This document shows, piece after piece, positions 12,753-32,000 of a stretch of DNA of 32,000 bases (position 1 is the first letter of the stretch; the number at the start of each line of letters is the position of its first letter). The notes beneath the pieces were generated by a model, which saw only the letters and a list, made by a program, of their open reading frames with translations, did not search any database and was not told the DNA's origin. Source of the stretch: Cereibacter sphaeroides 2.4.1 (GTDB taxonomy: Bacteria; Pseudomonadota; Alphaproteobacteria; Rhodobacterales; Rhodobacteraceae); assembly GCF_000012905.2 (NCBI RefSeq), contig NC_007494.2, positions 150,001-182,000 of the forward strand, in the 5' to 3' direction. The position numbers and the translations under genes are program-made.

Positions 12753-13451
12753 ATGGAGACCTCCCGCATGCAGACCGTCCTTTCACGCCCCCTGAGCATC
12801 CTCGCCGCCAGTGTGGCGCTCGCAGTGGCCGCCCCCGCGCTTGCCGAGAAGCCGCACGACCACGGGCACGATCATGCGCACGGCCATGGCCATGACGAGG
12901 CCCACAGCCACGCTTCGGACGAGATCGCCAAGGGCGTCTTCAAGGATGAGCAGGTCGCCGACCGCCCGCTCTCGGACTGGCAGGGCGACTGGCAGTCGGT
13001 CTATCCGCTGCTGGAGGACGGCACGCTGGCGCCGGTGATGGCGCACAAGGCCGAGCATGGCGACAAGACGGCCGAGGAATATCTCGCCTACTACCGGACG
13101 GGCTACGAGACCGACGTGAACCGCATCGAGATCGACGGCGACCGGGTGACCTTCCACGGCGCGGGCGGGCCGGTCTCGGGGCAGTATGAGGAGGACGGTC
13201 ACGAAGTGCTGACCTACAAGGCCGGCAATCGGGGCGTCCGCTTCATCTTCGAGAAGGTGAGCGGAGACGAGGCCGCGCCGAAGTTCATCCAGTTCAGCGA
13301 CCACCGGATCGCGCCGTCGACGTCGGACCATTACCACCTCTACTGGGGCAACGACCGCGCGGCGCTCCTTCAGGAGGTGACGCACTGGCCGACCTATTAC
13401 CCCGCCGAGCTGAGCGCCGAGGAGATCGTTCAGGAGATGCTCGCGCACTGA
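12753..13451 (+). CDS. zinT: ZinT/YodA-family periplasmic metal (zinc)-binding protein
   Basis: A signal peptide (SILAASVALAVAAPALA) is followed by a His-rich tract HDHGHDHAHGHGHDEAHSH. The conserved ZinT core follows: LSDWQGDWQSVYP...EYLAYY...IQFSDHRIAP...HYHLYWG. An alternative start is ATG 12768, with GGAGA upstream. Confidence 0.85.
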   Translation: METSRMQTVLSRPLSILAASVALAVAAPALAEKPHDHGHDHAHGHGHDEAHSHASDEIAKGVFKDEQVADRPLSDWQGDWQSVYPLLEDGTLAPVMAHKAEHGDKTAEEYLAYYRTGYETDVNRIEIDGDRVTFHGAGGPVSGQYEEDGHEVLTYKAGNRGVRFIFEKVSGDEAAPKFIQFSDHRIAPSTSDHYHLYWGNDRAALLQEVTHWPTYYPAELSAEEIVQEMLAH

Positions 13452-13452
13452 T

Positions 13453-13485
13453 CCCGAGGGGCAGGTCCGGCGCCTGCCCCTCGGG
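13453..13485. terminator. hairpin 1 of a tandem pair between convergent genes
   Basis: CCCGAGGGGCAGG-TCCGGCG-CCTGCCCCTCGGG, a 13-bp perfect stem starting 2 nt after the zinT stop. Confidence 0.5.
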
Positions 13486-13486
13486 G

Positions 13487-13519
13487 TCCTGCCTCGGGGG
13501 CAACCGTCCCGAGGCAGGA
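13487..13519. terminator. hairpin 2 of the tandem pair
   Basis: TCCTGCCTCGGG-N9-CCCGAGGCAGGA, a 12-bp perfect stem ending 5 nt before the stop of the minus-strand FAD protein gene. It shares the CCTCGGG/CCCGAGG core with hairpin 1. Confidence 0.5.
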
Positions 13520-13523
13520 TCCC

Positions 13524-14933
13524 TCAGGGCCGCGCTTGCCGGCCGAGCTCCTGCTCCGGCGCGGCCGCATGTGCGGCGACGAGATCCTCGGCCAGCCGGG
13601 CCGTCTGGTCGCGGATGTCGGGGATCGCGGTGATCTCCCAGAAGGCGGCGCGCGAGACCGGGCCGATGGCGAAGATGTGCCGCGAGCCCTGTCCGCGCGC
13701 GTCGATCAGCCGGCAGTCCTGCGCCACCTCGAAGCCGATGCGCAGCGGGTCGATCCGCGCGAGGCCCGAGGCGAGCAGGCTCGCCACCAGCGGCGAGGCG
13801 CTGTTCTTCGGATCCCGGCGGATGCCGCGGCAGTCGAACACAACGTCGGCCTCGAGCCGGACATGCGTTTTGGTGCCGCGCGGGCGGATCCGCAAAGCAA
13901 TCCGGCCGTCCGGCAGGCGCTCCGCGCCCTCGTAGCCCGCCCGCAGCAGCCGCATCCGCCCATCGGCCAACGCCGCCGCGATCCGCGCGTCCGAGGCGGG
14001 CGGGGCCCGGTGCCGGTGCACGTCCCACCAGCCCGCGCCGTGGCGCAGGAAGCGCGCCCGCTCCCGCTCCGGCAGGCCGCGCCAGATGCGGCGGACGAAA
14101 GGCCGGATGCCGTCCACCGCATCGCGCCATGTCCCGCCGCGCGCCTCCGCCTCGCGGGCGAGACGCCGCACCCAGGCCGTGAGCGCGCTCATCGGCGCCC
14201 CGAGCGGCACGTCGGGCAGGCCGAGGGGCAGGGGGCGCGTCGGCGCATGGCTGCGCGGCAGAAGCCCCCGCCGCGACAAGGCCACGATCTCGCCCCGATG
14301 GCCATTGGCGAGAAGCGTCAGCACCTTGTCGATCATGGTGAGGCCCGAGCCGAGGAGAACCACCCGCGCGTCCGGCGGCACGTCGGCCGCCCGCCACGGA
14401 TCCTGAAGCAGCCGGTCCTCTGCCGGATCCGGGCGCGGGTGGCCGGTGGCGAGGATCGCCACATCCGCGAGCCGGACCGAGCCGTCGCTGAAATGGGCGA
14501 TCACGCCGCGGCCGACCTCCTCGATCCGAAGGCATTCGCCGCCCACGCAGGTGAGCTGTGCGCCCGCGCGCCAGGGCGCGAGGATCTCTTCGAGGTAGCG
14601 CCGATAAAGACCGCGAGGGACGAAACTGTCTCCGGTGGAAAAGCGGCCTTCGGGCTCTGCCGCGAGCCACTGCCGGAAGTGGTCCGGCCGATCCGGAAAG
14701 GCGCTCATGTTGTGGACGCGCGTGTTGAGCAGATGCTCCGCCTCGCGCGTGGCATAGGCGATGCCGGCGCCGACCGGCCCGTCGCGCTCCACCAGCGTGA
14801 TGCGGAAGAGACCGTGGCCGCGGGTGAGCAGATGCGCCGCCATCAGCGCCCCGCTCGCGCCGCCGCCGACGATCAGGACATGCAGGCGGCGCGGGACGTG
14901 CCGCCGGATCGGGTCGGGAAGGTGAGGCCTCAT
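13524..14933 (-). CDS. FAD/NAD(P)-binding oxidoreductase (YdhS-like FAD-NAD(P)-binding family)
   Basis: The N-terminal dinucleotide fold is HVLIVGGGASGALMAAHLL. A second Rossmann-like motif is VVLLGSGLTMIDKVL. IFAIGP lies near the C-terminus. Confidence 0.8.
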   Translation of the reverse strand: MRPHLPDPIRRHVPRRLHVLIVGGGASGALMAAHLLTRGHGLFRITLVERDGPVGAGIAYATREAEHLLNTRVHNMSAFPDRPDHFRQWLAAEPEGRFSTGDSFVPRGLYRRYLEEILAPWRAGAQLTCVGGECLRIEEVGRGVIAHFSDGSVRLADVAILATGHPRPDPAEDRLLQDPWRAADVPPDARVVLLGSGLTMIDKVLTLLANGHRGEIVALSRRGLLPRSHAPTRPLPLGLPDVPLGAPMSALTAWVRRLAREAEARGGTWRDAVDGIRPFVRRIWRGLPERERARFLRHGAGWWDVHRHRAPPASDARIAAALADGRMRLLRAGYEGAERLPDGRIALRIRPRGTKTHVRLEADVVFDCRGIRRDPKNSASPLVASLLASGLARIDPLRIGFEVAQDCRLIDARGQGSRHIFAIGPVSRAAFWEITAIPDIRDQTARLAEDLVAAHAAAPEQELGRQARP

Positions 14934-14960
14934 CGCAGTCTCCTTTCGTGCCGTTGTCGG

Positions 14961-15536
14961 TCAGGCGCGGTAGAATGCGCGCTCCAGAGCCTGTTCCGGG
15001 GGCATGAGCGGGACCGGCCGGCGGGCGAGCTCGTCGCGCAGGACGACGCCGCCGGGCCAGGGCCCGAAGCCGCTGTCGACATTGATGTGACCGGCGAAGC
15101 CGAGGTCGACCACGTCCGCGCGCCAGGCGCGGGCGAGCCGTTCCGCCTGGGTGAAGCTCATCCAGGGATCGTTCCGGCTGGAAACCACATAGGCGGGCAC
15201 GCCGAGGCTTTCCTCGAAGATCGGGCCGAAGCTCTCGGTTCGGTCGCTGTGCCGCGGCTCTGCTGGGGCCACGAGAATCGCGCCGCCAACCTTCAGATGC
15301 GGCCATTTGGCCAGAAGCCGCGCGATCAGGATCGCGCCGAGGCTGTGCCCCACGAGGATCGCTCCGGGGTGCTGCAGGATCGCTCCGGCCACCTCGATCT
15401 CCCAGACGGCGGGCACCGGGCGGGAGACATCGGACAGGTCGAGCAGGAGCGCATCCGGATCGCGGAGCGCCCACCACTGCTGCCAGTGGGCCGCGGGCGA
15501 GCCGTCGAGGCCGGGAATCAGGAGCGTCTTGGGCAT
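14961..15536 (-). CDS. alpha/beta hydrolase, RBBP9/YdeN-type serine hydrolase
   Basis: MPKTLLIPGLDGSPAAHWQQWW is the family N-terminus. The nucleophile elbow is GHSLG (ILVGHSLGAILIA). D and H candidates are SRNDPW and GHIN. GGAG lies 7 nt upstream of ATG 15536. Confidence 0.8.
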   Translation of the reverse strand: MPKTLLIPGLDGSPAAHWQQWWALRDPDALLLDLSDVSRPVPAVWEIEVAGAILQHPGAILVGHSLGAILIARLLAKWPHLKVGGAILVAPAEPRHSDRTESFGPIFEESLGVPAYVVSSRNDPWMSFTQAERLARAWRADVVDLGFAGHINVDSGFGPWPGGVVLRDELARRPVPLMPPEQALERAFYRA

Positions 15537-19938: not shown

Positions 19939-19991
19939 GGACTGGCGAGCTTCGGCTTGCACAGGCGCAACAGTTCGACTATGCATGAATA

Positions 19992-20324
19992 ATGGAAAAG
20001 ACTCACGCTCTGGGTGTCCTGTCTGCCCTTGCCCACGACATCCGGCTGGACGTGTTCCGCCTCCTCGTGCGCGCCGGTCCTGCGGGCATGGCGGCCGGAG
20101 AGATTGCGGCGGGCCTCGACATCCGAGCCAACACGCTGTCGAACAACCTCACCATCCTGACGGGAGCGGGCCTTGTGCGCTCCGAGCGCGAAGGCCGCTC
20201 GATCCGCTATTTCGCGCGGATGGAGACGATGCGGGGGCTGCTGGCCTTTCTCATGGAGGATTGCTGCGGCGGCCGTCCCGAGCTCTGTCAGCCGGTTCTC
20301 GACCGGATCGCCTGCGACTGCTGA
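19992..20324 (+). CDS. arsR: ArsR/SmtB-family arsenic-responsive repressor
   Basis: LSALAHDIRLDVFRLLVRAGPAGMAAGEIAAGLDIRANTLSNNLTILTGAGLVRSEREGRSIRY is a winged helix-turn-helix. The C-terminal Cys cluster is DCCGGRPELC...ACDC. It lies directly upstream of acr3-arsC. Confidence 0.85.
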   Translation: MEKTHALGVLSALAHDIRLDVFRLLVRAGPAGMAAGEIAAGLDIRANTLSNNLTILTGAGLVRSEREGRSIRYFARMETMRGLLAFLMEDCCGGRPELCQPVLDRIACDC

Positions 20325-20359
20325 GTGCACGCATAACCCTGCCCAGAGGCTGAACCAAG

Positions 20360-21412
20360 ATGACCGACCTGCCGCAGACCCAGATCAATCCCCTGGGCCC
20401 GTTCGAGCGCTGGCTGACCCTCTGGGTCGGGCTGGCCATGGTGGCGGGCCTCTCCCTGGGCGTGCTGGCTCCGGGTCTGGTGCAGGTCATCGCCACGGCC
20501 GAGATCGCCTCGATCAACCTCGTCGTCGCCGTGCTGATCTGGGCGATGGTCTATCCGATGATGGTCAACGTGGATTTCGCCGCCGTCGGGGGGGCTGTGC
20601 GGCAGCCGACAGGACTGCTCATCACGCTAGTCGTCAACTGGCTGGTCAAGCCCTTCACCATGGCTCTGCTGGCGGTCCTGTTCTTCGACCTTGTCTTCGC
20701 TCCCTGGATCGCCCCCGAGGATGCGCAGCAGTATATCGCCGGTCTGATCCTGCTGGGCGCCGCGCCCTGCACCGCGATGGTCTTCGTCTGGTCCCAACTG
20801 GTGCGCGGTGATGCGACCTACACGCTGGTGCAGGTGTCGGTAAACGACATGGTGATGGTCGTGGCCTTCGCCCCCATCGTGGCCCTGCTTCTCGGCGTGA
20901 CCGAGATCGTCGTGCCCTGGCAGACGCTGGTCCTGGCGACGATCCTCTATGTCGTCCTGCCGCTGGCGGCAGGGATGCTGACGCGCCGCAGTCTTGGCAC
21001 CCCCGCCCGGATCGAGGCGTTCTCGGCCCGCGTGAAGCCCTGGTCGATGATCGGCCTGATCGCGACGGTCGCGATCCTCTTCGGGCTGCAGGGGCAGACG
21101 ATCCTCGACCGGCCCGCGATCATTGCGCTGATCGCCGTGCCGATCCTGATCCAGAGCTATCTGATCTTTGCCGTGGGTTACGGCGCGGCCTGGCTGATGA
21201 GGGTGCCGCACCGGATCGCGGCGCCGTGCGCCATGATCGGCACCTCGAACTTCTTCGAACTGGCCGTCGCCGTCGCCATCAGTCTCTTCGGCCTCAATTC
21301 GGGCGCGGCGCTGGCAACGGTCGTGGGCGTTCTGGTCGAGGTGCCGGTGATGCTGTCCCTCGTGGCCTTCGCCAACCGCACCCGCGCCCGTTTCCCGGAG
21401 ATCCGCGCATGA
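20360..21412 (+). CDS. acr3: ACR3-family arsenite efflux permease
   Basis: FERWLTLWV..., [28 protein letters not shown] (the conserved ACR3 Cys motif) and [19 protein letters not shown] are all present. Confidence 0.9.
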
Positions 21413-21840
21413 TCGTCATCCACCACAACCCTGCCTGCGGCACGTCGCGCAACGTGCTGGAGATCATCCGCGCGTCCGGCGCCGAGCCGGTCATCATCGA
21501 CTATCTGGCCGAAGGCTGGACACGTCCGCAGCTGCTGGCTCTGCTGGCCGCGGCCGATCTGACGCCGCGTCAGGCGCTGCGGACGTCGAAGTCGCCCGCC
21601 GCCGAACTGGGCCTGTTGGAGGCTGGCGTCACCGACGGGCAGATCCTCGATGCAATGCTCGCCCATCCGGTGCTGGTCAACCGGCCCATCGTGGCCTCGC
21701 CCAGGGGCGTGCGGCTCTGTCGCCCGTCCGAGACCGTGCTGTCGCTTCTGGACCGCCTGCCGGTTGGGCCGCTCTACAAGGAGGACGGGCAGATGATCCT
21801 GAACGAGAGGGGCGAGATCGTCAGCGACCTGCCCACCTGA
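21409..21840 (+). CDS. arsC: glutaredoxin-dependent arsenate reductase (R773 ArsC type)
   Basis: [21 protein letters not shown]...[23 protein letters not shown] matches the E. coli/R773 ArsC catalytic Cys motif (NPACGTSRN) and the C-terminal motif. The ATGA start/stop overlap with acr3 indicates coupling. Confidence 0.9.
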
Positions 21841-22142: not shown

Positions 22143-23090
22143 TCAGGGGCCGCGCAGGGAGAGGGGCGTGAGGATGCGCTCGAACTCGGCGAGCAGGGAC
22201 GCGCCGGCCGAAGCGGGCTCGGGATCCGGGACGTCGGAGGGCACGACACGGGTATGATCGTCGGTATTGCCCCTCTCTGCATCACTCAGGCGGGGATCGT
22301 CGGCGCCTGCGGTCTCGGGGAACAGGGGCGGCCGCACGCTCGCGACGGCTGGCGGCACGGGGTAGAGAAGCGGCTCTCCCCGGCCGGCCGAGATGCTGTT
22401 GGCCACCGTCCTCAGCACGTTGATCCGGTCGGCCGGTGCGGCGACCAGCACGCTCGACCACGCTCCGTCGCGGAGATCCGAGCGCAGGTAGAACACGCCC
22501 AGCCGAAAATCTCCGTCCCCGAAGATGGCGTGGAAGGGCGCGTAGGCCGACCAGACCCGCAGGCGGGACTTCGGCGCGGGGAAGTAGCTGTTCCTGTTCG
22601 GCAGGGCGTTGCGCCGGATGGTGTCTCCGACCGCCTCGGCCGCTACCACCGGCCCGCGCGCGGCATAGATCGCCACCTCGGGGGAGGCGTGGGTCTGCGT
22701 GAAGTTTGGCCCGATCGCTTCGCCGGTGGCGGAATCTCCAGGCACGAGCAGCGAGCCGTCCAGCGCCGGAAGATAGGCGACTTGCCAGCCCGAGGCCGCG
22801 AGCCGTTGGCCTGCGTCGGACAGGAAGCTCTCGACGTCGGAGGCGGTGAGGCGGCAGGGCGGGGCACAGCCGAGCGCCTGTTCGAGCGCGCGTCGGCTCA
22901 TCCCGCCCCACTCTCCGTCGAGCATGCCGTCATAGACGTCCGCAAACGACAGCGCGGCTTGGAGAAAGCGGATCTCGGCGTGCGAGAGGCGGGCGGGGTC
23001 GAAGGGCCGATCCTCCGCCTGCGCCTCCGGGGTCACAAGGAGAAGCGTCAACAGACAAGCGGCCAGCGATCTCATGCCAGGGCGTCTCAT
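22143..23090 (-). CDS. secreted hypothetical protein with an N-terminal peptidoglycan-binding-like (PG_binding_1) repeat
   Basis: The signal peptide is MRSLAACLLTLLLVTPEAQA. AEIRFLQAALSFADVYDGMLDGEWGGMSRRALEQ fits the PG_binding_1 pattern (LQ..L...G.Y.G..DG..G..T..A...FQ). I do not recognise the remaining ~230 aa. An alternative start is ATG 23075. Confidence 0.7.
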   Translation of the reverse strand: MRRPGMRSLAACLLTLLLVTPEAQAEDRPFDPARLSHAEIRFLQAALSFADVYDGMLDGEWGGMSRRALEQALGCAPPCRLTASDVESFLSDAGQRLAASGWQVAYLPALDGSLLVPGDSATGEAIGPNFTQTHASPEVAIYAARGPVVAAEAVGDTIRRNALPNRNSYFPAPKSRLRVWSAYAPFHAIFGDGDFRLGVFYLRSDLRDGAWSSVLVAAPADRINVLRTVANSISAGRGEPLLYPVPPAVASVRPPLFPETAGADDPRLSDAERGNTDDHTRVVPSDVPDPEPASAGASLLAEFERILTPLSLRGP

Positions 23091-23340
23091 TTCCCGATCA
23101 CCAGATCGAGCATGGCCGTCCGCGCGTCGGCGCTCCAGCGGCAGTCGATCCGCGCCTGTCCCGCCGATCGCGAAAGGCCGCCCTTGCGTGCGCAGGTCAG
23201 CACGAGGTGCGGCGCGACGCCGGCCGCCGCGGCTGCGTTGGCGCAGCTTCGGATGCCCGCCTCGAGGCTGGCGGAGTTCAGCGTAAGCCGGCCGCCATGC
23301 GGGGCAGGGCGCGAACGCTACGCTGACGCCGCCGCGCAGG

Positions 23341-23679
23341 ATGGCGGTGGCCGCAGGGGCGGGGGCCGTGCTCGCGCTGGCGGGACTGGCGGTCTATGCC
23401 GGGATGGGCGGCTTCTCCGACCCGCCGGCCCCGCAGACGTCCGAGCCGCCGCCCGGTGCCGCCGAGATGCGTGCCATTCCGGCCCCTGCCGAGGAGGCGC
23501 CCGCCGCGAAGCCGGAGGGTGCCGATCCTCAACCCTCCGAGGGAGGCCACGCAGAGCCGGAGGCGCAGCCCCGGAAGGCTGCTGCACCGGAGGCCAGCCC
23601 GGCACCTGCACGACGACCCGCAGCCCGCGAGGGGCATCCGTCCAGGGACAACGCTCCGGCCAGAGCGGACGAGATCTGA
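23341..23679 (+). CDS. small single-pass membrane protein with a Pro/Ala/Glu-rich tail (first ORF of the kinase operon)
   Basis: 112 aa. The N-terminal hydrophobic helix AVAAGAGAVLALAGLAVYAG is followed by a low-complexity P/A/E-rich region. The stop overlaps the kinase start (TGATG at 23677-23681). An in-frame stop at 23284 limits upstream extension. The RBS is weak and the composition low-complexity, hence moderate confidence. Confidence 0.45.
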   Translation: MAVAAGAGAVLALAGLAVYAGMGGFSDPPAPQTSEPPPGAAEMRAIPAPAEEAPAAKPEGADPQPSEGGHAEPEAQPRKAAAPEASPAPARRPAAREGHPSRDNAPARADEI

Positions 23680-24800
23680 TGACCGAGCCGCGCCTTCCCA
23701 ACGGCACGCGCATCGCCGGCCATGTCATCACGGACCAGATCGGCCGGGGCGGGTTCGGGATCACCTACCGGGCGAACGTGCTCGAGACCGGCGCCACCGT
23801 CGCGCTGAAGGAATACTTCCCCTGCGACATGGCCCATCGCGATGCGCAGGGCTTCGTCCGCCCGCTGCCCAGGGCCGAGCGGATGTACGAGGAGGGTCTG
23901 CGGGCCTTCATCACCGAGGCGAACATCCTGAAGGCGCTGCCGCAGCAGGCCGGTCTGGTGCGGGTGCGCGGCGCCTTCGAGAAGTTCGGCACCGCCTATT
24001 GCGCGATGGATTTCATCGAGGGCGAGCCGCTCAGCCGTCTCGCGCAGGCCACGCTCCAGCGCACCGGCTTCATCGCCGAGGATCTGCTGCGCAGCTTCCT
24101 CGCCCCGATCTGCCTCGCGCTCGAGACGGTTCATTCGACGAACCTCGTCCACCGCGATGTGAAGCCCGCCAACATCATGATCTCGCGCCGCGACCAGCAG
24201 CCGATCCTGATCGACTTCGGCGCCGCGCGCCCCTCGGGGCAGCGCGGGTCGCTCGCGATGTTCACCCGCAGCTACGCCCCGGTCGAGCTGTTCCCCCGCG
24301 CGCAGGTGCGTTCGGCGCAGCCCTTGGAGGAGGGGCCGTGGAGCGACATCTATTCGCTGTCCGTCATGCTCTACGAGATGGCGACGCGGCAGCTGCCCCC
24401 CAGCGCGCCCGACCGGGCGGCGGCGGTCGCCGCGGGGGCGCCCGACCCTTACGTCCCGCTGACGGCGCTTCTTGCGCAGCGGCGGCTGCGCGGCAGCTAC
24501 TCGCCCGCCTTCGCCTCGGCGGTCGATGCCGGCTGCGCGCTCTGGCCCGAGGCGCGGCCGCGGACGGTACGCCAGTTCGCCTACATGGCCGGCGTCGAGA
24601 TGGGGTCCGCTCCGCCGCCGACGCCGCGCCGAACCGTCACCGGGGCCGCTCCCTCGCCCTCCTCGTCGGTTCCGCGCAGCCAGCGACGCCCCGTGAACCG
24701 CCAGTCCATCGCCATGGTGCTCCTGATGCTGCTGATCGCGGGGGCGGCGGTGTCCTATGGCGTCGTCTCGCGCCAGCCCGACTGGGTGGCCTACCGATGA
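23679..24800 (+). CDS. Hanks-type Ser/Thr protein kinase 1, C-terminally membrane-anchored
   Basis: Kinase motifs present: G-loop IGRGGFGITY, VALKEY Lys, catalytic loop HRDVKPANIM (24150-24173), DFG (LIDFGAAR), SYAPVE, and WSDIYSLSVMLYEM. The C-terminal TM is SIAMVLLMLLIAGAAVSYGVV, with only about 10 residues beyond it. The ORF-track start 21942 is a spurious 579-codon extension. Confidence 0.9.
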   Translation: MTEPRLPNGTRIAGHVITDQIGRGGFGITYRANVLETGATVALKEYFPCDMAHRDAQGFVRPLPRAERMYEEGLRAFITEANILKALPQQAGLVRVRGAFEKFGTAYCAMDFIEGEPLSRLAQATLQRTGFIAEDLLRSFLAPICLALETVHSTNLVHRDVKPANIMISRRDQQPILIDFGAARPSGQRGSLAMFTRSYAPVELFPRAQVRSAQPLEEGPWSDIYSLSVMLYEMATRQLPPSAPDRAAAVAAGAPDPYVPLTALLAQRRLRGSYSPAFASAVDAGCALWPEARPRTVRQFAYMAGVEMGSAPPPTPRRTVTGAAPSPSSSVPRSQRRPVNRQSIAMVLLMLLIAGAAVSYGVVSRQPDWVAYR

Positions 24801-26011
24801 TGAGACTTCTCTGCGCGCTTGTCGGATTGCTCTGGGCCGCGGCCGCCGCGGCACAGGATTTCAGCGCCGTCGCCCGGCTGACCGACGCCTCGGTGGGCCG
24901 GATCTTCGTGGACCTTCCTCGCGGAATGAGGACCGGCGCCGGCATGGTCTTCGGCCAGGGCGCCGGGGGCAGGCTGCTGTACCTGACCAATTTCCATGTT
25001 GTTCAGAACGGCGGCGACATTGCCGTCTTCTTCAAGAACGGCGATGCGATCTCGATCTACAGCGGCACGGTCCTTGCCGTCTCGCAGGAGAAGGACCTGG
25101 CGGCGCTGAGCCTCGACCCCGAGGAGATCGGCACGCCCTCGCCCCCGCCTCTCGCCATCGACACGCGACGGCTCGCGAAAGGCGAGGCCGTGGTGGCCAT
25201 CGGCTATCCCGCCGCGGCCGACGCCACCATGGGGCGCGACATGAACATCGCCGCCTTCGAGACCACGCTGACCGGCGGCAGCGTCAGCCGCGTGCTGAAC
25301 GGCTCCTGGCGCGGGGCCTCGGCCGAGCTTGAGATCGTCCAGCACACCGCGCCGCTCAGCCCCGGCAATTCCGGCGGACCGCTGCTCGACCGGTGCGGGC
25401 GGGTGATCGGGGTGAACACGATGATTGCGACGGACGCGGCCGGGATCTACCTCGCCGCCTCGGCCGGCACCATCGCGGACTTTCTGGCCGAGGCCGGGCT
25501 TCCGATGCAGACGGCCGGCGGCAGTTGCGGCGGAGAGCCGGCCTCTCCGGCTGCGGCGCCACCGGCTGCCACGGTGACGGACGGCCGGGTGCCGATCTGG
25601 ATGATCCTCGGCGGAACCGGCGCCGCGCTGGCTTTGGTCATGGCCGCGATGGCGGTTGCGGCCGGCGGCCGGGGTGGCGAGCCCGCGGCGCCCCGGGTCG
25701 CGCTGACGCTGACCATCGCCACGGGCGGATCGCGCCAGCGGTGCGGCATCGGACGGGCGAGCCTGCAACGCGGCGTCATCCTCGGACGCGGCGGCGCGGC
25801 CGAGGTGGCGATCGACAGCCCGCGCGTCAGCCGCGAGCATCTGCGGCTGACGCTCGAGGGGCGGCGGCTGATGGCGACGGACCTCGGTTCGACCAACGGG
25901 ACGATGGTCGACGGCAGGCCGCTGCCGCCGAACCAGCCGCGGCAGGTGGGCGAGGCCACGGTTCTGGTGCTGGGCGGCGAGGTCGAGATCCGGCTGAGGG
26001 CGGGGTCATGA
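24797..26011 (+). CDS. trypsin-like (S1/HtrA-type fold) serine protease domain - TM helix - FHA domain fusion protein
   Basis: The signal peptide is MMRLLCALVGLLWAAAAAAQD. Catalytic triad candidates are His67 (TNFHVV), Asp100 (EKDLAAL) and Ser192 (GNSGGPLLD). The TM helix is residues 266-290 (VPIWMILGGTGAALALVMAAMAVAAG). The FHA hallmarks are ILGRG...VSREH...DLGSTNGTMVDG. The ATGA overlap with the kinase 1 stop indicates coupling. Confidence 0.85.
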   Translation: MMRLLCALVGLLWAAAAAAQDFSAVARLTDASVGRIFVDLPRGMRTGAGMVFGQGAGGRLLYLTNFHVVQNGGDIAVFFKNGDAISIYSGTVLAVSQEKDLAALSLDPEEIGTPSPPPLAIDTRRLAKGEAVVAIGYPAAADATMGRDMNIAAFETTLTGGSVSRVLNGSWRGASAELEIVQHTAPLSPGNSGGPLLDRCGRVIGVNTMIATDAAGIYLAASAGTIADFLAEAGLPMQTAGGSCGGEPASPAAAPPAATVTDGRVPIWMILGGTGAALALVMAAMAVAAGGRGGEPAAPRVALTLTIATGGSRQRCGIGRASLQRGVILGRGGAAEVAIDSPRVSREHLRLTLEGRRLMATDLGSTNGTMVDGRPLPPNQPRQVGEATVLVLGGEVEIRLRAGS

Positions 26012-26727
26012 AGGATCTGGCGCCCCCCGATCTGGCGGCATCGGACGCGGTCGCCGACATCCGCGATCTTTCGGTCCGGCTGGGAGAGCGGTTCGAGGTG
26101 ACGATCGAGCGGCTCTCGGTCGCCCCCGGCGAGGTTCTGGTGCTGGATGCGCCCAGCGGCAGCGGCAAGAGCACGGTGCTCGGGCTGGTCGCGGGGGCGG
26201 TTGCGCCTCAGGCGCGGCCGGTGCGGCATCGGGTGGCGGGGCACGATCTGGCCGTGGCGTCGCGCCCGCCGGGGCCGGCGGCGGTGGGCTTCGTGCTCCA
26301 GACACATGCGCTGGTGCCCTATCTGACCATGGGCGACAACATCGGTCTGCCGTCGCGCATCGCGCGGCTGCGGGTGGCGCCGGACTGGGCACGAGAGGTG
26401 GTGGTCTCGCTCGGCCTTGTCGATCTGATGGACCGCTTTCCGGCGCAGCTATCGGTGGGCCAGCGCCAGCGCGCGGCCGTGGCGCGCGCGATGCTCGCGC
26501 GGCCGCGGCTGCTGCTGCTGGACGAGCCGGTCTCGGCCCTCGACCCCGCCAATGTCCGCGCAGTGGAGGAGCTGATCCTGCGCCTTGCCGGGGAGGCGGG
26601 CTCGGCCGTGCTGCTCGCGGGCCACCAGATCGCGGGAAGCGCCTTTGCCGCCTGCCGCCGCGTGCGACATCGGGTGGAGGTTGCGGGCGCAGTGACGCGC
26701 TCGGTCTTCCGGTCGGAGGCGGTCTGA
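26008..26727 (+). CDS. ABC transporter ATP-binding protein (LolD/MacB/TagT-like)
   Basis: Motifs present: Walker A APSGSGKST, Q-loop FVLQTHALVPYLT, signature LSVGQRQR (a G-to-V variant of LSGGQ), Walker B LLLLDEP, D-loop SALD and H-loop AGHQ. It overlaps the previous stop by ATGA. GAGGG lies about 9 nt upstream. Confidence 0.85.
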   Translation: MKDLAPPDLAASDAVADIRDLSVRLGERFEVTIERLSVAPGEVLVLDAPSGSGKSTVLGLVAGAVAPQARPVRHRVAGHDLAVASRPPGPAAVGFVLQTHALVPYLTMGDNIGLPSRIARLRVAPDWAREVVVSLGLVDLMDRFPAQLSVGQRQRAAVARAMLARPRLLLLDEPVSALDPANVRAVEELILRLAGEAGSAVLLAGHQIAGSAFAACRRVRHRVEVAGAVTRSVFRSEAV

Positions 26728-27917
26728 TGCCGCTGCCCCTCGTTCTGGCGCTGCGCGAGCTGCGGCACGACTGGATCTCGGCGCTCTGCTTCGTGGCGGC
26801 GCTGGTGGGCGTGCTGGCGCCCATGCTGATCCTGCTCGCGCTGAAGACGGGTGCGCTCGACACGATGGTCGAGCGGCTGGTCGACGATCCGGCGAACCGC
26901 GAACTGCTGGCGGTGGGGGCCGGCGCGTATGACGAGGGCTTCTTCCGCTGGCTGGAGGCGCGGCCCGAGGCGGGGTTCGTCGTCCCCGCCACGCGCAGCA
27001 TCAACGCCCTTGCGGATGCGGTCGTGGCCTCCGCTCCCCGCCGCGAGATGGTGCGGGAGGTGCCGCTGGTGGTTTCGGCCGCGGGCGATCCGCTGCTGGC
27101 GGGGGAGGTAGGGCCGGGCCGGGTCTGGCTGAGCGCGCAGCTTGCGAAGTCGCTGGGGGTGGCGCCCGACGCGGTGCTGACGATGGTGATCGGACGGCGC
27201 ATCGACGGCCTCGAGCAGACGGCGCGGCGACCGCTGAAGGTGGCGGGGATCGTTCCGGCCGAGCGCTACGGTCGCTCGGCGCTGTTCCTCTCGCTGCCGG
27301 ACATGCTGGCGATCGAGCGGTTCCGCGACGATCCCGCCGTCACGCCCGAAAGCTGGCTGGAGATTGCCGCGCCGCCTGCGGCCTTTGCCAGCTTCCGCCT
27401 CTATGCGCGGACTCTCGCGGATCTCGGGCCGCTCTCGGCGGCGCTGGAGGGGCGCGGTGTTGCGGTGCGCCCCCGCGCCGAGAATGCGGCGCTGTTGCTG
27501 CAGCTGCGGCGGGGCGCGGATCGTCTGTATCTTGCGGTCGCCGCATTGGCCGCCGCCGGATTCTGGGCCGCGATGAGCGCCAATCTCCGCGGCATGGTGG
27601 AGCGGCGGAGGCTGGCCTTCAGCCTGCTGCGGATGCTGGGCCTGACGCCCGTCCAGCGCGCGACGGTTCCGCTGATCCAGAGCCTCGTGCTGATCGGGAC
27701 CGGGCTCGGGCTCTCGCTTGCCCTCGTTCTGCCGGCGCTGGCGCTGATCAACGCGAGCTTTCCCTCCGTGACCGAAGGGGCGGCGCTCGCGCGCCTCAGG
27801 CCGGACCAGTTGGGGGGGGCGGCTGCGCTTGCCTGCGTGACGGCGCTGACCGCGGCGCTCTGGGCGATGGCGGCGGTGCTGCGGATCCCGAGCGAGGAGG
27901 TGTTGCGTCATGGCTAG
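26727..27917 (+). CDS. FtsX-like ABC transporter permease (MacB/LolCE/TagS-type: TM1, large periplasmic domain, three C-terminal TMs)
   Basis: The N-terminal LALRELRHDW plus TM1 is typical of the FtsX family. A roughly 215-aa extracytoplasmic region follows. The C-terminal three-TM FtsX module includes ...RRRLAFSLLRMLGLTPVQ.... A GGAGG RBS is present. TGATG overlaps the ATPase stop. Confidence 0.8.
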   Translation: MPLPLVLALRELRHDWISALCFVAALVGVLAPMLILLALKTGALDTMVERLVDDPANRELLAVGAGAYDEGFFRWLEARPEAGFVVPATRSINALADAVVASAPRREMVREVPLVVSAAGDPLLAGEVGPGRVWLSAQLAKSLGVAPDAVLTMVIGRRIDGLEQTARRPLKVAGIVPAERYGRSALFLSLPDMLAIERFRDDPAVTPESWLEIAAPPAAFASFRLYARTLADLGPLSAALEGRGVAVRPRAENAALLLQLRRGADRLYLAVAALAAAGFWAAMSANLRGMVERRRLAFSLLRMLGLTPVQRATVPLIQSLVLIGTGLGLSLALVLPALALINASFPSVTEGAALARLRPDQLGGAAALACVTALTAALWAMAAVLRIPSEEVLRHG

Positions 27918-29526
27918 GGCATGGGGTCTTGCGCTGGCGATCCTCTTGGCCGCGCCGCCCGCCGCGGCGGGCGGGATCACGGTGGACGAGACATACTGGA
28001 ACCCGCAGCCGGCCGAGGGCGACCTCGTGCTGCCGATGCCCTGCGGCGGCGCGATGGCATTCCGCCCGGTGGCGACACCCAATGCCGACGGTGCGGTGGG
28101 CGACGTTCCGGTCATCCTCGGTCGCGAGGACGAGGACCAGCCCTATCTGGACGGCACGCGGCGCTCCTATGTCTCGGGAGGGTTTCCGGGGACGGGCGAG
28201 GCGGAAGCCAAAGCCATGTTTTACATGGCGAAATACGAGATCGCCGAGGCGCAGTACCGTGCGGTGACGGAAGGCTGCCCGCAGAAGGAGCCGCGCCGGC
28301 GCGACTTCCTGCCGGTAACGGGCGTGACGAAGACCGAGCTTGACGCCTTCGCGCAGGCCTTGACGGTCTGGCTGATGCGGAACGCGCCGGAAAGCGTCGC
28401 CCTCGCCGGTGCGGCGCCGGCCCATCTGCGGCTTCCGACCGAGGAGGAGTGGGAGTTCGCCGCCCGGGGCGGTCTTGCCGTCGATCCGGCGCTGTTCCGC
28501 GGCGCGCTGCCGCCGATCCCGCCCGGTCACGCGGCATCGGAATACATCGCGCATGGCGGCAACGACAGCGCGGGCGGCAAGGTGCAGGCGATCGGAACGC
28601 TGGCGCCGAACCCGCTCGGGCTGCACGACATGCTGGGCAACGTCTCGGAATATGTGCTCACCCCCTTCGCGATGGTGCGCCACGGGCGGCTGCACGGTCA
28701 GGCCGGCGGCTACGTCAAGCGCGGCGGCGATGCGCGCACGCCGCTCGAGCAGATCACCAGCGCAACCCGGTTCGAGGTGCCTCCCTTCGACGCGCATTCG
28801 AAGGATGTGACGCGCGAGGCTTTCACCGGGGGGCGGCTCGTGCTGTCCGCGCTTTCGATCACCTCGGCCGAGCAGGCGAAGGCGGTCGCGGCGGCGCTCG
28901 AGACCCTGTCGCGGGCCGACCCTGCGCTCGACTCGGCGGCCTCGGAGGCCGAGGTTCTGGCGCTGCTCGACCGGCTTCAGCGCGAGGCCGGCGATGCCGC
29001 CGACCGCAGCCGCTTTGCCACCATCGCCCGGACGATCCGCGAGGCCCGCGCCGAGACGAATGCGCAGCGCGACCGGACCATCCGGATGATCCTCGGCTCG
29101 TCGGTGCTGACCTGCGACCAGATCGTGCAGCGCTACCTGAACGCGCTTGCCATCGCGGCGCTGGTGCCGAGCTACGACGGGCTGGCCGCCGAGGCCGAGG
29201 CGAGCGGCGACACCGCACTGGCGCAGGAGGTGGCCGAGGCCCGGGCCGAGGCCGAGACGAAGCTGCGCGAGATGGAGGAAGCGGTCGGCCGCGAAAGCGT
29301 CGACTATGCCAACCTGATCGAGGGCCTTTCGGCCGAATTCTCGCAGGAGCTGCTGGCGGCGCAGATCGCGGCCGTGCGGGACGAGCACGAGAGCCGCGGC
29401 CCTCGGCGCGGCGCCTGCCTCGGCGCGGTGCAGGCCCATCTCGACCGGCGGGCCCGGAGCGGGATGAACGACCTCGCCGCCATCCGGTCCGACATGCAAC
29501 AGATCGCGGCCGCGCAGGCCCGCTAA
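27910..29526 (+). CDS. secreted FGE-sulfatase (SUMF1/TagR-like) domain protein with a long Ala/Glu-rich helical C-terminal region
   Basis: The signal peptide is MARAWGLALAILLAAPPAAAGG. FGE-family motifs are RLPTEEEWEFAARGG (28429-28473), NPLGLHDMLGNVSEYV and VKRGG. The roughly 220-aa C-terminal part is coiled-coil-like. It overlaps the permease gene by 8 nt. A GAGGAGG RBS is present. Confidence 0.85.
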   Translation: MARAWGLALAILLAAPPAAAGGITVDETYWNPQPAEGDLVLPMPCGGAMAFRPVATPNADGAVGDVPVILGREDEDQPYLDGTRRSYVSGGFPGTGEAEAKAMFYMAKYEIAEAQYRAVTEGCPQKEPRRRDFLPVTGVTKTELDAFAQALTVWLMRNAPESVALAGAAPAHLRLPTEEEWEFAARGGLAVDPALFRGALPPIPPGHAASEYIAHGGNDSAGGKVQAIGTLAPNPLGLHDMLGNVSEYVLTPFAMVRHGRLHGQAGGYVKRGGDARTPLEQITSATRFEVPPFDAHSKDVTREAFTGGRLVLSALSITSAEQAKAVAAALETLSRADPALDSAASEAEVLALLDRLQREAGDAADRSRFATIARTIREARAETNAQRDRTIRMILGSSVLTCDQIVQRYLNALAIAALVPSYDGLAAEAEASGDTALAQEVAEARAEAETKLREMEEAVGRESVDYANLIEGLSAEFSQELLAAQIAAVRDEHESRGPRRGACLGAVQAHLDRRARSGMNDLAAIRSDMQQIAAAQAR

Positions 29527-29544
29527 CCTGAAGGAGCACCCCCC

Positions 29545-29808
29545 ATGCGGGATTTTCTGAACAAGTCGCTCGCCGTCCTGATCTGGATCGCCACCGGCTT
29601 CAACGTCGCCCTGTCCTGCTACACCGGCGCGATGATCATCCGCTATTCGCCGATGCAGCTGATGGGTGACAGCACGGTGATCCTCTACGGCTTCCTGTTC
29701 ATCCTTTTCGGGGTGACGCTGTCTCTGGTCTTCGCAGGCATCTGCTTCCAGATCATGGACATCCGCACCTTCACCAAGCATGTCGCGCTGAACCAGCGCC
29801 GAGTGTGA
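29545..29808 (+). CDS. small two-TM membrane protein, no recognised family
   Basis: 87 aa with two hydrophobic helices: SLAVLIWIATGFNVALSCYTGAMII and VILYGFLFILFGVTLSLVFAGICF. A strong GAAGGAG RBS lies 8 nt upstream. It sits between the FGE and kinase 2 genes with 18-nt and 7-nt gaps. Confidence 0.6.
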   Translation: MRDFLNKSLAVLIWIATGFNVALSCYTGAMIIRYSPMQLMGDSTVILYGFLFILFGVTLSLVFAGICFQIMDIRTFTKHVALNQRRV

Positions 29809-29815
29809 CGGCGGG

Positions 29816-31099
29816 GTGACGGCGATGGCGAGCGAACTCCAGCCCGGCGACGTGATCCAGGACACCTACCGCGTCGAGGCGCGGCTGGGGCAGGGCGGCA
29901 TGGGCACGACCTGGCGCGGCGTGAACCTCACGACGCAGGACGTGGTGGCGATCAAGGTGATGACGCCCGAGATCGCGCTGGTGCCCAAGGCGGTCGAGCT
30001 GTTCCGCCGCGAGGCGCAGCTCTTGCGCAAGGTCCAGAGCGACGCGGTGATCCGCTACGAGACCACGCTTCAGGACCGCGAGGGACGGCTGTACCTGATC
30101 ATGGAGTTCGTCGACGGCCAGCCGCTGTCGCATTACCTCGAGCGCGGGGCGCGGCTCGCGCCCGGCGACGTGCTGCGGCTGGGGCGGCGGATGGCGGGGG
30201 CGCTGGCGGCGATCCACGCGCTCGGCATCGTGCACCGCGACGTGGCGCCCGACAACATCATGCTGCCCGACGGCGACATCGGCCATTGCAAGCTGATCGA
30301 CTTCGGGCTCGCCTCGAACACCTCGGGGACCGAGGCCTCGATCATCGGGGCGAGCTATGCCGGGAAGTACTCCTATTCCTCGCCCGAGCAGTTCGGGCTG
30401 CACGGGGCGCGGGTGGGGCCGGCCTCCGACATCTACTCGCTGGGCCTTGTGCTGATGAAGGTCTGCGGGCTGAAGGTGCCGGGCGAGGGGATGGGCATGG
30501 CCGCGGTCGAGGTGCGGCGGGAGAACGTGACGATCCCGCGGGATGCGGGCCTGCCTCCGGCGCTGGCGCGGCTGCTCGAAGCGATGCTGCGCACCCGGCC
30601 CGACGAACGCCCCGCCGATCTGCAGAAGCTGTTCGCCGAGGCGGCGCCGGGGCTGGAACGGGCGGCGCCGGCCCGCACGCCCCGCCGATCGGGTCTGGCG
30701 CTTGCGGCCGGTGCGGGCGTTCTGGCCGCCGCGGGGGCGGGCCTGTGGTTCGCCCTGCCGTATCTCGACACGCCCCCGGGCAGCCGCGTGGTCACCGATG
30801 CCCGCGCGGTTGTGGCCGCCCATGATCCGCTTGCTGAAATCGAAAGCCGCTTCGCCGCGGGCGATGTCGAGACGGCCTTCGCAAGCCTGATGGCGCTGGC
30901 GAACGATCAGGCCGGCCCGCCCGAGACCCGGAGGCAAGCCTATTTTGCGCTGGGGCGGATGTACGATCCGGCCAGTTTCAACGCCAGCCGCAGCCCGTTC
31001 AAGGCGCCCAATGCCTCGGCCGCGCGGCGGAACTATCAGGCGGCTGCGGACCTCGGCTCGGCCGAGGCGCGGCAAGCCCTTGTCCTGCTGAGAGAATGA
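29816..31099 (+). CDS. Hanks-type Ser/Thr protein kinase 2 - TM - periplasmic Sel1/TPR-like repeat domain
   Basis: Kinase motifs present: G-loop LGQGGMGTTW, VAIKVM Lys, catalytic loop HRDVAPDNIM (30233-30256), DFG (LIDFGLA), YSSPEQ and ASDIYSLGLVLM. The TM is GLALAAGAGVLAAAGAGLWFAL. The C-terminal AYFALGRMYDP...ARRNYQAAADLGSAEARQAL is Sel1-like. The start is GTG 29816 or ATG 29825. Confidence 0.9.
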   Translation: MTAMASELQPGDVIQDTYRVEARLGQGGMGTTWRGVNLTTQDVVAIKVMTPEIALVPKAVELFRREAQLLRKVQSDAVIRYETTLQDREGRLYLIMEFVDGQPLSHYLERGARLAPGDVLRLGRRMAGALAAIHALGIVHRDVAPDNIMLPDGDIGHCKLIDFGLASNTSGTEASIIGASYAGKYSYSSPEQFGLHGARVGPASDIYSLGLVLMKVCGLKVPGEGMGMAAVEVRRENVTIPRDAGLPPALARLLEAMLRTRPDERPADLQKLFAEAAPGLERAAPARTPRRSGLALAAGAGVLAAAGAGLWFALPYLDTPPGSRVVTDARAVVAAHDPLAEIESRFAAGDVETAFASLMALANDQAGPPETRRQAYFALGRMYDPASFNASRSPFKAPNASAARRNYQAAADLGSAEARQALVLLRE

Positions 31100-32000
31100 C
31101 GATGCTGCGCCTGCTGGTCCTGGTTCTGAGCCTCGCCGCCACCGCCCTTTGGGCCGGGGATGTCCGTCCGCTGGTCATGGAGGGCAAGTCCGCCCTGCCG
31201 CAGCGCGTTCTGGTGCGCGAGGCGGGCGAGCGTCTGGAGACGCCCGGCGGCCGGTCTCTGGGGCCGGTCGTGCCGCTGCAGCAGTTCTACGTCTATGCGC
31301 GTCAGGACGGCTGGGTGAAGGTCGGGCCGGGGCAGGATGGGAGCGATCTGGGCTGGCTGCCGGCCCAAGAGGTGGCCGACTGGAACCAGAACATCGTGGC
31401 CACGCTGGAGGTGACGGCGGGGCTGGAACGCACGCTGTTCTTTTCCGACTTTGATGCCGCCTATGAGGTGGTCGAGGCCGAGGACCCGGGCCGCGACGCG
31501 GCCGCGCTGCGCGCCGAGGCCGAGGCGGCCGAGCAGAGCGGGGCGCCCTCCGACCGCATCGTTGCGCTGGGGCCGCGCGAGGCGATCGACCAGCGGCAGC
31601 GGCTGCACGTCCTGCCGATCCTCTCGGCCGAGGAGGCGCTGTTCGAAAGCGGCGCCTTCGTGAACCTGCTGAAGGTGGCGGTGGCGCGCGCGCAGGCGCC
31701 GTCGGAGGCCGCGCAACCCATCGGCCAGCCGATGCGCGCGGGCATCGTCTTCGTCGTCGACACCACGCATTCCATGGCGCCGTACATCAGCGCCACCCGC
31801 GATGCGCTGCGCGAGGTCTATGGCGAGGTGGCGGCCGCGGGTCTGAGCGACCGGGTGTCCTTCGGTCTGGTGGGCTATCGCGACAGCCTGAAGGGCCAGC
31901 CGGCACTGGACTATGCTGCGCGCACCTTCGTCACCCTCGAGGAGGGGCGGACGGCCGAGGGCTTCCTCGCCGGGATCGCGCAGATGTCCGAGGCGACAGC
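31096..32000 (+). CDS. secreted von Willebrand factor A (vWA) domain protein, N-terminal part (runs off the right window edge)
   Basis: Absent from the ORF track because it is open to the window edge; I translated it by hand. The signal peptide is MTMLRLLVLVLSLAATALWAG. A possible SH3b-like segment is FYVYARQDGWVKVGPGQDGSDLGWLPAQEV. The vWA beta1/MIDAS region is AGIVFVVDTTHSMAPYI (31759-31773), followed by RVSFGLVGYRD. ATGA overlaps the kinase 2 stop. Confidence 0.8.
   Translation, partial: MTMLRLLVLVLSLAATALWAGDVRPLVMEGKSALPQRVLVREAGERLETPGGRSLGPVVPLQQFYVYARQDGWVKVGPGQDGSDLGWLPAQEVADWNQNIVATLEVTAGLERTLFFSDFDAAYEVVEAEDPGRDAAALRAEAEAAEQSGAPSDRIVALGPREAIDQRQRLHVLPILSAEEALFESGAFVNLLKVAVARAQAPSEAAQPIGQPMRAGIVFVVDTTHSMAPYISATRDALREVYGEVAAAGLSDRVSFGLVGYRDSLKGQPALDYAARTFVTLEEGRTAEGFLAGIAQMSEAT

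Follow-up and report, generated by a model that had tools for sequence, protein, structure and literature searches.

Background

The TagQRST proteins of Pseudomonas aeruginosa are regarded as a sensor of envelope damage, in which the TagTS pair acts in signalling and TagR probably activates the kinase PpkA via the periplasmic domain of PpkA (PMC7817224, PMC6082577). The sensing complex has been described as restricted to Pseudomonas (PMC6082577), and one review table also lists Rhodobacter (PMC13584744). A related gene set has been interpreted in another way: a preprint (10.64898/2026.09.18.752743) takes an srf-linked cassette, consisting of a vWA protein, a Lol-like ABC pair and a SUMF1/EgtB/PvdO protein, to be a toxin export and processing module, and makes no mention of TagQRST. 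In this paper, we have analysed a stretch of 32,000 nucleotides from Cereibacter sphaeroides 2.4.1 (contig NC_007494.2, positions 150,001 to 182,000 of the forward strand; hereafter the window), in which three adjacent genes (26008-29526) encode an ABC ATPase, an ABC permease and a protein with the fold of the formylglycine-generating enzyme (FGE). We conclude, with a probability of roughly 0.7, that this trio is the TagT/TagS/TagR part of an envelope sensor of the TagQRST-PpkA type, which is not linked here to a type VI secretion system (T6SS) and lies in a reduced kinase operon. In our judgement, the placement in this family merits more confidence than that figure, and the mechanism less.

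Results

Homology of the window genes to TagT, TagS, TagR and PpkA

A genome scan revealed the order TssM-TagF-PP2C-PpkA-TagT-TagS-TagR-TagQ in the T6SS clusters of three Pseudomonas species and one Xanthomonas sp., the Pfam domains of the Pseudomonas-type cluster being IcmF, TagF_N, PP2C, Pkinase plus VWA, ABC_tran, FtsX, FGE-sulfatase and Gly-zipper. As the Pseudomonas reference we used TagT, TagS and TagR of P. cremoricolorata, identified by the TssM-TagF-PP2C-PpkA synteny and by Pfam. The ATPase of the window (26008-26727, 239 amino acids) is 42% identical to this TagT (E=5e-36), the permease (26727-27917, 396 amino acids) is 35% identical to TagS (E=7e-36), and the FGE-fold protein (27910-29526, 538 amino acids) is 29% identical to TagR over 542 columns (E=8e-40), in an alignment that extends into its C-terminal domain. 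The initial annotation had named these three genes a TagT/TagS/TagR-like trio; all three are indeed homologous, but the unit turned out to be larger, for a kinase and a periplasmic vWA protein belong to it as well. The cassette kinase, STK2 (29825-31099, 424 amino acids; Pfam Pkinase 1e-39), is 30% identical to the kinase domain of P. cremoricolorata PpkA, and the vWA protein (31096-32000, crossing the end of the window; 631 amino acids in full, with the full gene at 13187-15082 of locus L001), which carries a signal peptide and a weak Pfam VWA match, is 33% identical to PpkA residues 383-998 over 637 columns. Because the two proteins align to the two halves of PpkA, PpkA can be seen as STK2 and the vWA protein fused, and in the window, as in Tistrella, its kinase and vWA parts are encoded by separate genes.

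The decisive case for the cassette inside a T6SS cluster is plasmid pTM1 of Tistrella mobilis, where the genes are arranged as tagH-tssJ-tssK-tssL-tssM-tagF-PP2C-STK-vWA-ABC-FtsX-FGE-hyp-VgrG. The window proteins match their Tistrella counterparts over most of their length, with identities of 37% for STK2 (residues 8-417), 35% for the vWA protein, 41% for the ATPase, 33% for the permease and 37% for the FGE-fold protein; a search from the Tistrella TagR-like protein returned no Pseudomonas protein among its best 120 matches. Taken together, the alignments and gene orders show the cassette of STK2, periplasmic vWA protein, ATPase, permease and FGE-helical protein to be homologous to and collinear with ppkA-tagT-tagS-tagR. 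In complete cassettes, the Gly-zipper lipoproteins encoded after the FGE gene match TagQ in a profile search (E=7e-17).

We found T6SS genes neither in the 32 kb window nor in the 10 kb that follow the FGE gene, the part of the genome that was checked, and no secretion gene of any kind lies in those 10 kb. Likewise, Srf homologues are missing from the window, as judged by Pfam scans, and from the genes called around the FGE gene.

The ABC ATPase and the permease

The ATPase (Pfam ABC_tran, E=2e-22) has intact Walker A (APSGSGKST) and Walker B (LLLLDEP) motifs, together with the signature PAQLSVGQRQRA. The initial annotation had pointed to a variant LSVGQ in place of LSGGQ, and this is what the sequence contains. 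Most cassette ATPases that we examined have LS[VIF]G[QE]RQR at this position, including TagT (LSVGQRQRV), so that the LSVGQ signature is, on these alignments, a trait of the family.

The hydrophobic segments of the permease define one N-terminal transmembrane (TM) helix, a periplasmic domain of ~225 residues and three C-terminal TM helices. Its match to Pfam FtsX is below the curated cutoff (E=0.003), and its relatives match both FtsX and MacB_PCD. An AlphaFold2 (AF2) model with a predicted local distance difference test score (pLDDT) of 92 retrieved LolC/LolE, MacB, HrtB, YtrF, BceB, YbbP and FtsX in Foldseek, the best match being LolC at E=3.5e-15, with identities of 10-18% across the matches. 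Topology and predicted fold thus agree with the FtsX layout of MacB type, with a large periplasmic domain, that had been proposed from the sequence, and together with the identity to TagS they lead us to call the protein a TagS-like type VII (MacB/LolC-fold) permease. NCBIfam and PADLOC gave no specific family for either the permease or the FGE-fold protein. The possibility that the ABC pair represents housekeeping LolCDE orthologues was rejected, as the ATPase scored 94 bits against the LolD model TIGR02211, whose cutoff is 308 bits, and the permease matched no NCBIfam model at all.

The FGE-fold protein and its C-terminal domain

The first part of the TagR-like protein (residues 1-319, 27910-28866) consists of a signal peptide and the FGE-fold domain, which Pfam FGE-sulfatase matches over residues 102-287 (E=1e-24), the match ending at profile position 236 of 255. 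The domain contains the motifs RLPTEEEWEFAARGG, GLHDMLGNVSEYV and KRGG. Across 40 aligned orthologues, the signal peptide apart, Cys is confined to columns 45, 123, 402 and 503; none of the 40 has a Cys between residues 124 and 401, or in the segment after KRGG where the catalytic Cys of FGEs lie. Catalytic-region Cys is also missing in 18 diverse members of the family, among which only Cys45 and Cys123 are invariant. The initial claim of FGE fold motifs with no Cys after RGG is therefore borne out by the census, and the loss of the catalytic cysteines, for which an alignment had been proposed as a check, extends to all the orthologues and relatives aligned. We take the catalytic Cys pair to be missing throughout the family on the strength of these alignments, and, because there are no catalytic cysteines, the domain cannot be a formylglycine-generating enzyme; the annotation of this gene as a "formylglycine-generating enzyme family protein" is misleading. 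A PDB search with the segment after GNVSEY, meant for alignment to catalytic FGEs, returned only chance matches to Shank PDZ domains. The nearest PDB matches, in sequence and in fold, are PorK and TvpA.

The C-terminal domain (residues 320-538, 28867-29526) consists of 23% Ala, and A/E/R/L/Q/D account for 66% of its residues. AF2 predicts it to be all-helical at pLDDT >90, with a helix of 70 residues (363-432), a second one (435-476) and three shorter ones, forming a hairpin or bundle, and the pair Cys402/Cys503 is conserved in this subfamily. It had been described as a long coiled-coil extension; its helical, Ala/Glu-rich nature stands, but the predicted structure and the Cys pair argue for a conserved, folded hairpin or bundle domain rather than a low-complexity coiled-coil tail.

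The same region had been considered impossible to place in a known family, and in searches with the single sequence this remains so. A phmmer search of 1.84 billion representatives with this domain as the only query recovered just 17 proteins, every one of them a member of the domain's own Rhodobacterales subfamily, and Foldseek with the full model matched only the FGE domain (TvpA, PorK, CalU17), giving generic helical matches at E>0.03 for the helical domain. Profile-profile comparison, on the other hand, does place it. With hhalign, the Rhodobacterales domain matches that of the other cassette types with 99.5% probability (E=3e-23, 211 columns), and the other cassette types in turn match the C-termini of Pseudomonas TagR with 97.5% probability (E=5e-12). 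Because of these links through the other cassette types, we assign the C-terminal half to a fast-evolving C-terminal domain of the TagR family. The presence of the same domain also explains the length of ~590 amino acids of Pseudomonas TagR.

Family members differ in their N-termini. TagR of P. cremoricolorata (L035, 9857-11638) and of Pseudomonas sp. GD04091 (L032, 9872-11641) begin with a lipobox (LAAC / LGAC), whereas most other members, like the window protein, have an ordinary signal peptide.

Kinases, protease-FHA protein and small membrane protein

STK2 has the catalytic loop HRDVAPDN, followed by a TM helix and by a Sel1-like tail in the periplasm, which contains a YDP..SPF motif. The form HRD[VIL]APxN, in which Ala replaces the Lys of the catalytic loop, was found in all the split-PpkA kinases that were checked (the window, L005, L006, L007, L013 and L100), including the T6SS-linked Tistrella kinase. 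The canonical HRDVKPxN is present in fused Pseudomonas PpkA and in the other kinase of the window, STK1 (23679-24800, 373 amino acids; Pfam Pkinase), a Hanks-type Ser/Thr kinase with the loop HRDVKPAN, whose C-terminal TM helix (hydrophobic segment 339-365) is followed by a periplasmic tail of ~10 residues.

Between STK1 and the ATPase lies a gene (24797-26011) for a bitopic protein of 404 amino acids (Pfam Trypsin_2 1e-24, FHA 5e-14; hydrophobic segments 1-22 and 264-291), which comprises a signal peptide, a periplasmic trypsin-like protease domain, a TM helix and a cytoplasmic FHA domain. Such a fusion of a protease outside to an FHA domain inside, through a TM helix, is an unusual inside-out arrangement. 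A trypsin-like serine protease also recurs beside the cassette in kinase-type and srf-type loci (L011, 6063-7931; L014, 17702-18595; L027 and L028). The periplasmic placement of the protease domain, of the FGE-fold protein and of the vWA protein is based on their signal peptides. A small membrane protein of 87 amino acids with hydrophobic segments is encoded between the FGE gene and STK2 (29545-29808); it is 61% identical to p89 of Litoreibacter and is restricted to the Rhodobacterales form of the cluster.

The Rhodobacterales cluster and other genomic contexts

Full-length relatives of the FGE-fold protein are found across the Rhodobacterales with 46-60% identity, in a conserved cluster of 13 genes. 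These encode, in order, a Gly-zipper lipoprotein, a lipoprotein of ~150 amino acids, a vWA-FHA or FHA protein, a small FHA-like protein, a PP2C phosphatase, STK1, the trypsin-FHA protein, the ATPase, the permease, the FGE-fold protein, the small membrane protein (missing in Nereida), STK2 and the vWA protein. None of the orthologous Rhodobacterales clusters that we examined contains T6SS genes.

More distant cassettes were found by tblastn against plasmids and by a scan of GTDB genomes. Their core has the form (kinase or Sel1 protein)-vWA-ATPase-permease-FGE-(lipoproteins), and it occurs in Alpha- and Gammaproteobacteria, Desulfobacterota and Bacteroidota, often without any T6SS. On IncFIB plasmids of Klebsiella the core lies directly downstream of srfA/srfB/srfC (114 plasmid records, e.g. 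L009, K. pneumoniae pPM48TC_140), and srf-linked copies were also found in Leclercia, Pantoea, Haematospirillum, Aggregatibacter, Pseudomonas guariconensis and, as a paralogous copy, on a plasmid of C. azotoformans. The window proteins are 30-37% identical to the srf-linked four-gene core (vWA, ATPase, permease and FGE-helical protein), and the homology of this core to TagRST-PpkA suggests a sensor role for the srf-linked cassette instead of toxin export.

Stand-alone copies were found in Parvibaculum, Chromatium (with a kinase), Desulfosarcina and a metagenome-assembled genome of the Bacteroidota. Downstream of the cassette in Parvibaculum and Chromatium (L015, 14247-15560; L016, 12539 onward) lies a gene for a phospholipase-like/lipase_3 protein or for a giant protein of two-partner secretion that contains a phospholipase-like region. 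These neighbours are worth noting because lipase effectors have been reported to trigger TagQRST in P. aeruginosa (PMC7817224). In a neighbour-joining tree of the FGE proteins, crude and without support values, the Rhodobacterales kinase/FHA form groups as a single clade, and T6SS and srf contexts are interspersed.

The deletion and the state of the window copy

In C. azotoformans, at 92% nucleotide identity, and in a second Cereibacter lineage all 13 genes are kept. Comparison of the window with the C. azotoformans locus (L100) by blastn gave two blocks, with L100 5392-14087 corresponding to window 23292-32000 and L100 3-287 to window 23011-23295. Because the two blocks abut in the window at ~23292-23295, we conclude that the window has undergone a deletion of 5.1 kb relative to C. 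azotoformans, and the retention of all 13 genes in so close a relative argues that the loss is recent. The deletion took both lipoproteins (one of them TagQ-like), two genes of FHA type, for the FHA protein and for a protein of 193 amino acids, and the first two-thirds of the PP2C gene, including the catalytic domain. What remains of the latter is a 3' remnant (23293-23679, + strand), whose translation aligns with the last ~129 amino acids of the C. azotoformans PP2C and in which the apparent open reading frame (ORF) of 112 amino acids spans 23341-23679. Apart from this tail, tblastn found no trace of the lost upstream genes. Of a divergent gene for a 302-amino-acid protein, about 200 bp survive at 23087-23295.

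The eight remaining genes, all on the + strand and overlapping or closely spaced, have intact ORFs, with ratios of nonsynonymous to synonymous substitution rates (dN/dS) of 0.17-0.40 when compared with the second Cereibacter lineage. On the window branch, 33 nonsynonymous and 111 synonymous changes were counted, with no excess over the intact sister branch (Fisher p=0.23). By these counts, which are small, the eight genes look maintained under purifying selection. The window system is a reduced derivative without a phosphatase, which may or may not still work.

Over the 14 kb that were compared, the window is identical to assemblies of C. sphaeroides, in which the locus lies on replicons of about 945 kb (e.g. 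CP047038.1), presumably chromosome 2. The 21 kb upstream of the cluster hold unrelated metabolic, metal and arsenic genes, among them a typical set for arsenic resistance immediately before the cluster (19989-21840; an ArsR-type HTH_20 regulator, an SBF/ACR3-type transporter and ArsC). A divergent gene at 22143-23090 (- strand) encodes a secreted protein of 315 amino acids that had no match in Pfam, NCBIfam or PADLOC; by our own reading, its segment LSHAEIRFLQAALSF..YDGMLDGEWG resembles a peptidoglycan-binding repeat.

Discussion

Alternative explanations and proposed mechanism

Apart from a TagQRST-PpkA-type sensor, three explanations of the locus deserve to be weighed. The name under which the gene appears at NCBI, together with the Pfam FGE-sulfatase match, would make it a sulfatase-maturation enzyme with an associated importer. 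We rejected this reading for want of the catalytic Cys pair and give it almost no credence: the window has no sulfatase gene, the permease is of MacB type rather than of an importer type, and no substrate-binding protein is encoded. The initial annotation had likewise judged the trio not to be a sulfatase-maturation enzyme with an importer, and the neighbourhoods agree, since in most related loci that we examined no sulfatase lies beside the cassette, the exception being L018, with a sulfatase ~4 kb downstream. An ABC pair that extracts or exports a lipoprotein or another membrane-anchored cargo, in the manner of Lol, while the FGE-family protein modifies this cargo in the periplasm, has more to be said for it, as LolC/LolE are the best structural matches of the permease, two lipoproteins are encoded beside the FGE gene in complete cassettes, and the preprint mentioned above (10.64898/2026.09.18.752743) understands the srf-linked cassette in this way. 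It nevertheless seems quite improbable to us: catalytic cysteines were found in none of the 58 aligned family members, the permease is only 11-18% identical to LolC/E and matches no NCBIfam Lol model, the cassette also occurs without SrfA and, in the window, without lipoproteins, and the homologous TagTS of Pseudomonas acts in signalling (PMC7817224, PMC6082577).

The remaining explanation concerns the window copy alone. With its clear deletion junction and PP2C remnant, the locus could be a decaying relic, whose eight genes are no longer expressed or useful and are intact only because the deletion, as the complete cluster of C. azotoformans indicates, is so recent; TagQ and PppA are, moreover, functionally important in P. 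aeruginosa according to reviews. We regard this as rather unlikely, given that all eight ORFs are intact, that the index of the assembly collection lists the identical FGE-fold protein in 112 blocks, and that the substitutions on the window branch show no excess of nonsynonymous changes over the intact sister branch. Several points do weigh against our own interpretation as a TagQRST-PpkA-type sensor. The comparison of TagT, TagS and TagR relies on P. cremoricolorata proteins as stand-ins for P. aeruginosa PA0070-PA0074; identity of the FGE-fold protein to Pseudomonas TagR is no higher than 29%; and a direct hhalign comparison of the window-type C-terminal domains with those of Pseudomonas TagR is not significant (E=0.1), their homology running through intermediates. 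The substitutions behind the selection test are few. TagQ is required for signalling in P. aeruginosa, as stated in reviews, and the window lineage has lost TagQ, the phosphatase and the original upstream region, for which reason the remnant may be silent or rewired. Even in Pseudomonas, the signal that TagQRST senses is not known (PMC7817224).

For a TagQRST-PpkA-type sensor in the window, a mechanism can be drawn up by analogy with P. aeruginosa and with the type VII ABC systems. In this scheme, sensing would be the task of a periplasmic complex of the FGE-fold and vWA proteins, and the ABC pair would spend ATP on a conformational change in the periplasm, i.e. on mechanotransmission, rather than on substrate transport. 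One or both membrane kinases would be activated as a result, and phosphothreonine would then be read by the cytoplasmic FHA domain of the trypsin-FHA protein, the output probably being periplasmic proteolysis or another envelope response and not the firing of a T6SS. The coiled coil of EnvC binds FtsX, and the TagR-like protein may likewise use its 70-residue helical hairpin to dock on the periplasmic domains of the permease.

Significance

On a broader scale, we put forward tentatively, at somewhat less than even odds, that the kinase/vWA/ABC/FGE-helical cassette is a widespread modular sensor of periplasmic breach or damage that has been plugged repeatedly into different outputs, with the helical domain of TagR docking on TagS as EnvC does on FtsX. 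If this is true, the outputs would include T6SS firing in Pseudomonas, Xanthomonas and Tistrella, the SrfABC machinery on plasmids of Enterobacterales and in Pasteurellaceae, and a periplasmic protease/FHA response in Rhodobacterales, and TagQRST would be a specialised case within a general system of envelope surveillance. The cassettes supply many natural variants for finding what TagR, TagS and TagT sense and how they do so, and in many lineages they show PpkA as a kinase and a separate vWA protein; they also suggest a different reading of the cassette beside srfABC on Klebsiella plasmids. Furthermore, C. azotoformans, with the intact cluster, and C. sphaeroides, with the deletion, constitute a natural experiment in genetically tractable relatives. 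In a literature coverage that was incomplete, we found no earlier description of T6SS-free clusters resembling TagQRST-PpkA or of their link to the srf cassette.

Comparison with known systems

Several known proteins and systems resemble parts of the locus. PorK/GldK, TvpA, PvdO and pFGE have a C-type-lectin-like FGE fold without the catalytic Cys pair, as is the case here, but none of them has a C-terminal helical domain or is linked to an ABC pair, a vWA protein and a kinase. FtsEX-EnvC, MacAB and LolCDE share the fold of the permease, and the putative partner in the window is also periplasmic and possesses a long helical hairpin; they differ in that identity is only 10-18% and in that the putative partner here bears an FGE-fold domain instead of a LytM domain. 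The srfABC-associated cassette of Klebsiella plasmids, Haemophilus and Xenorhabdus has a homologous four-gene core; it is tied to SrfA (a pseudokinase), SrfB and SrfC, whereas the window has Hanks kinases of active type and FHA proteins, and it has a Sel1/TPR protein where the window has a kinase-Sel1 fusion.

The system that comes closest is TagQRST-PpkA-PppA-Fha1, the threonine phosphorylation pathway of the H1-T6SS of P. aeruginosa. In the window, by comparison, the kinase and vWA genes come after the trio and not before it, PpkA is represented by two genes, a second kinase (STK1) and the extra 87-amino-acid membrane protein are present, no T6SS genes lie within 42 kb, a single protein joins the FHA domain to a periplasmic trypsin-like protease in place of an Fha1/TagH-type protein, and this lineage has lost both the TagQ-like lipoprotein and the phosphatase through the deletion. 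Nevertheless, both systems have an ABC ATPase with LSVGQ, a permease of FtsX/MacB fold, an FGE-helical protein, a Hanks kinase, a vWA module and an FHA reader; the PP2C phosphatase and the Gly-zipper lipoprotein are matched in sister lineages of the window; and the order kinase-vWA-ATPase-permease-FGE is shared by the T6SS-linked cassettes and the Rhodobacterales-type locus L007.

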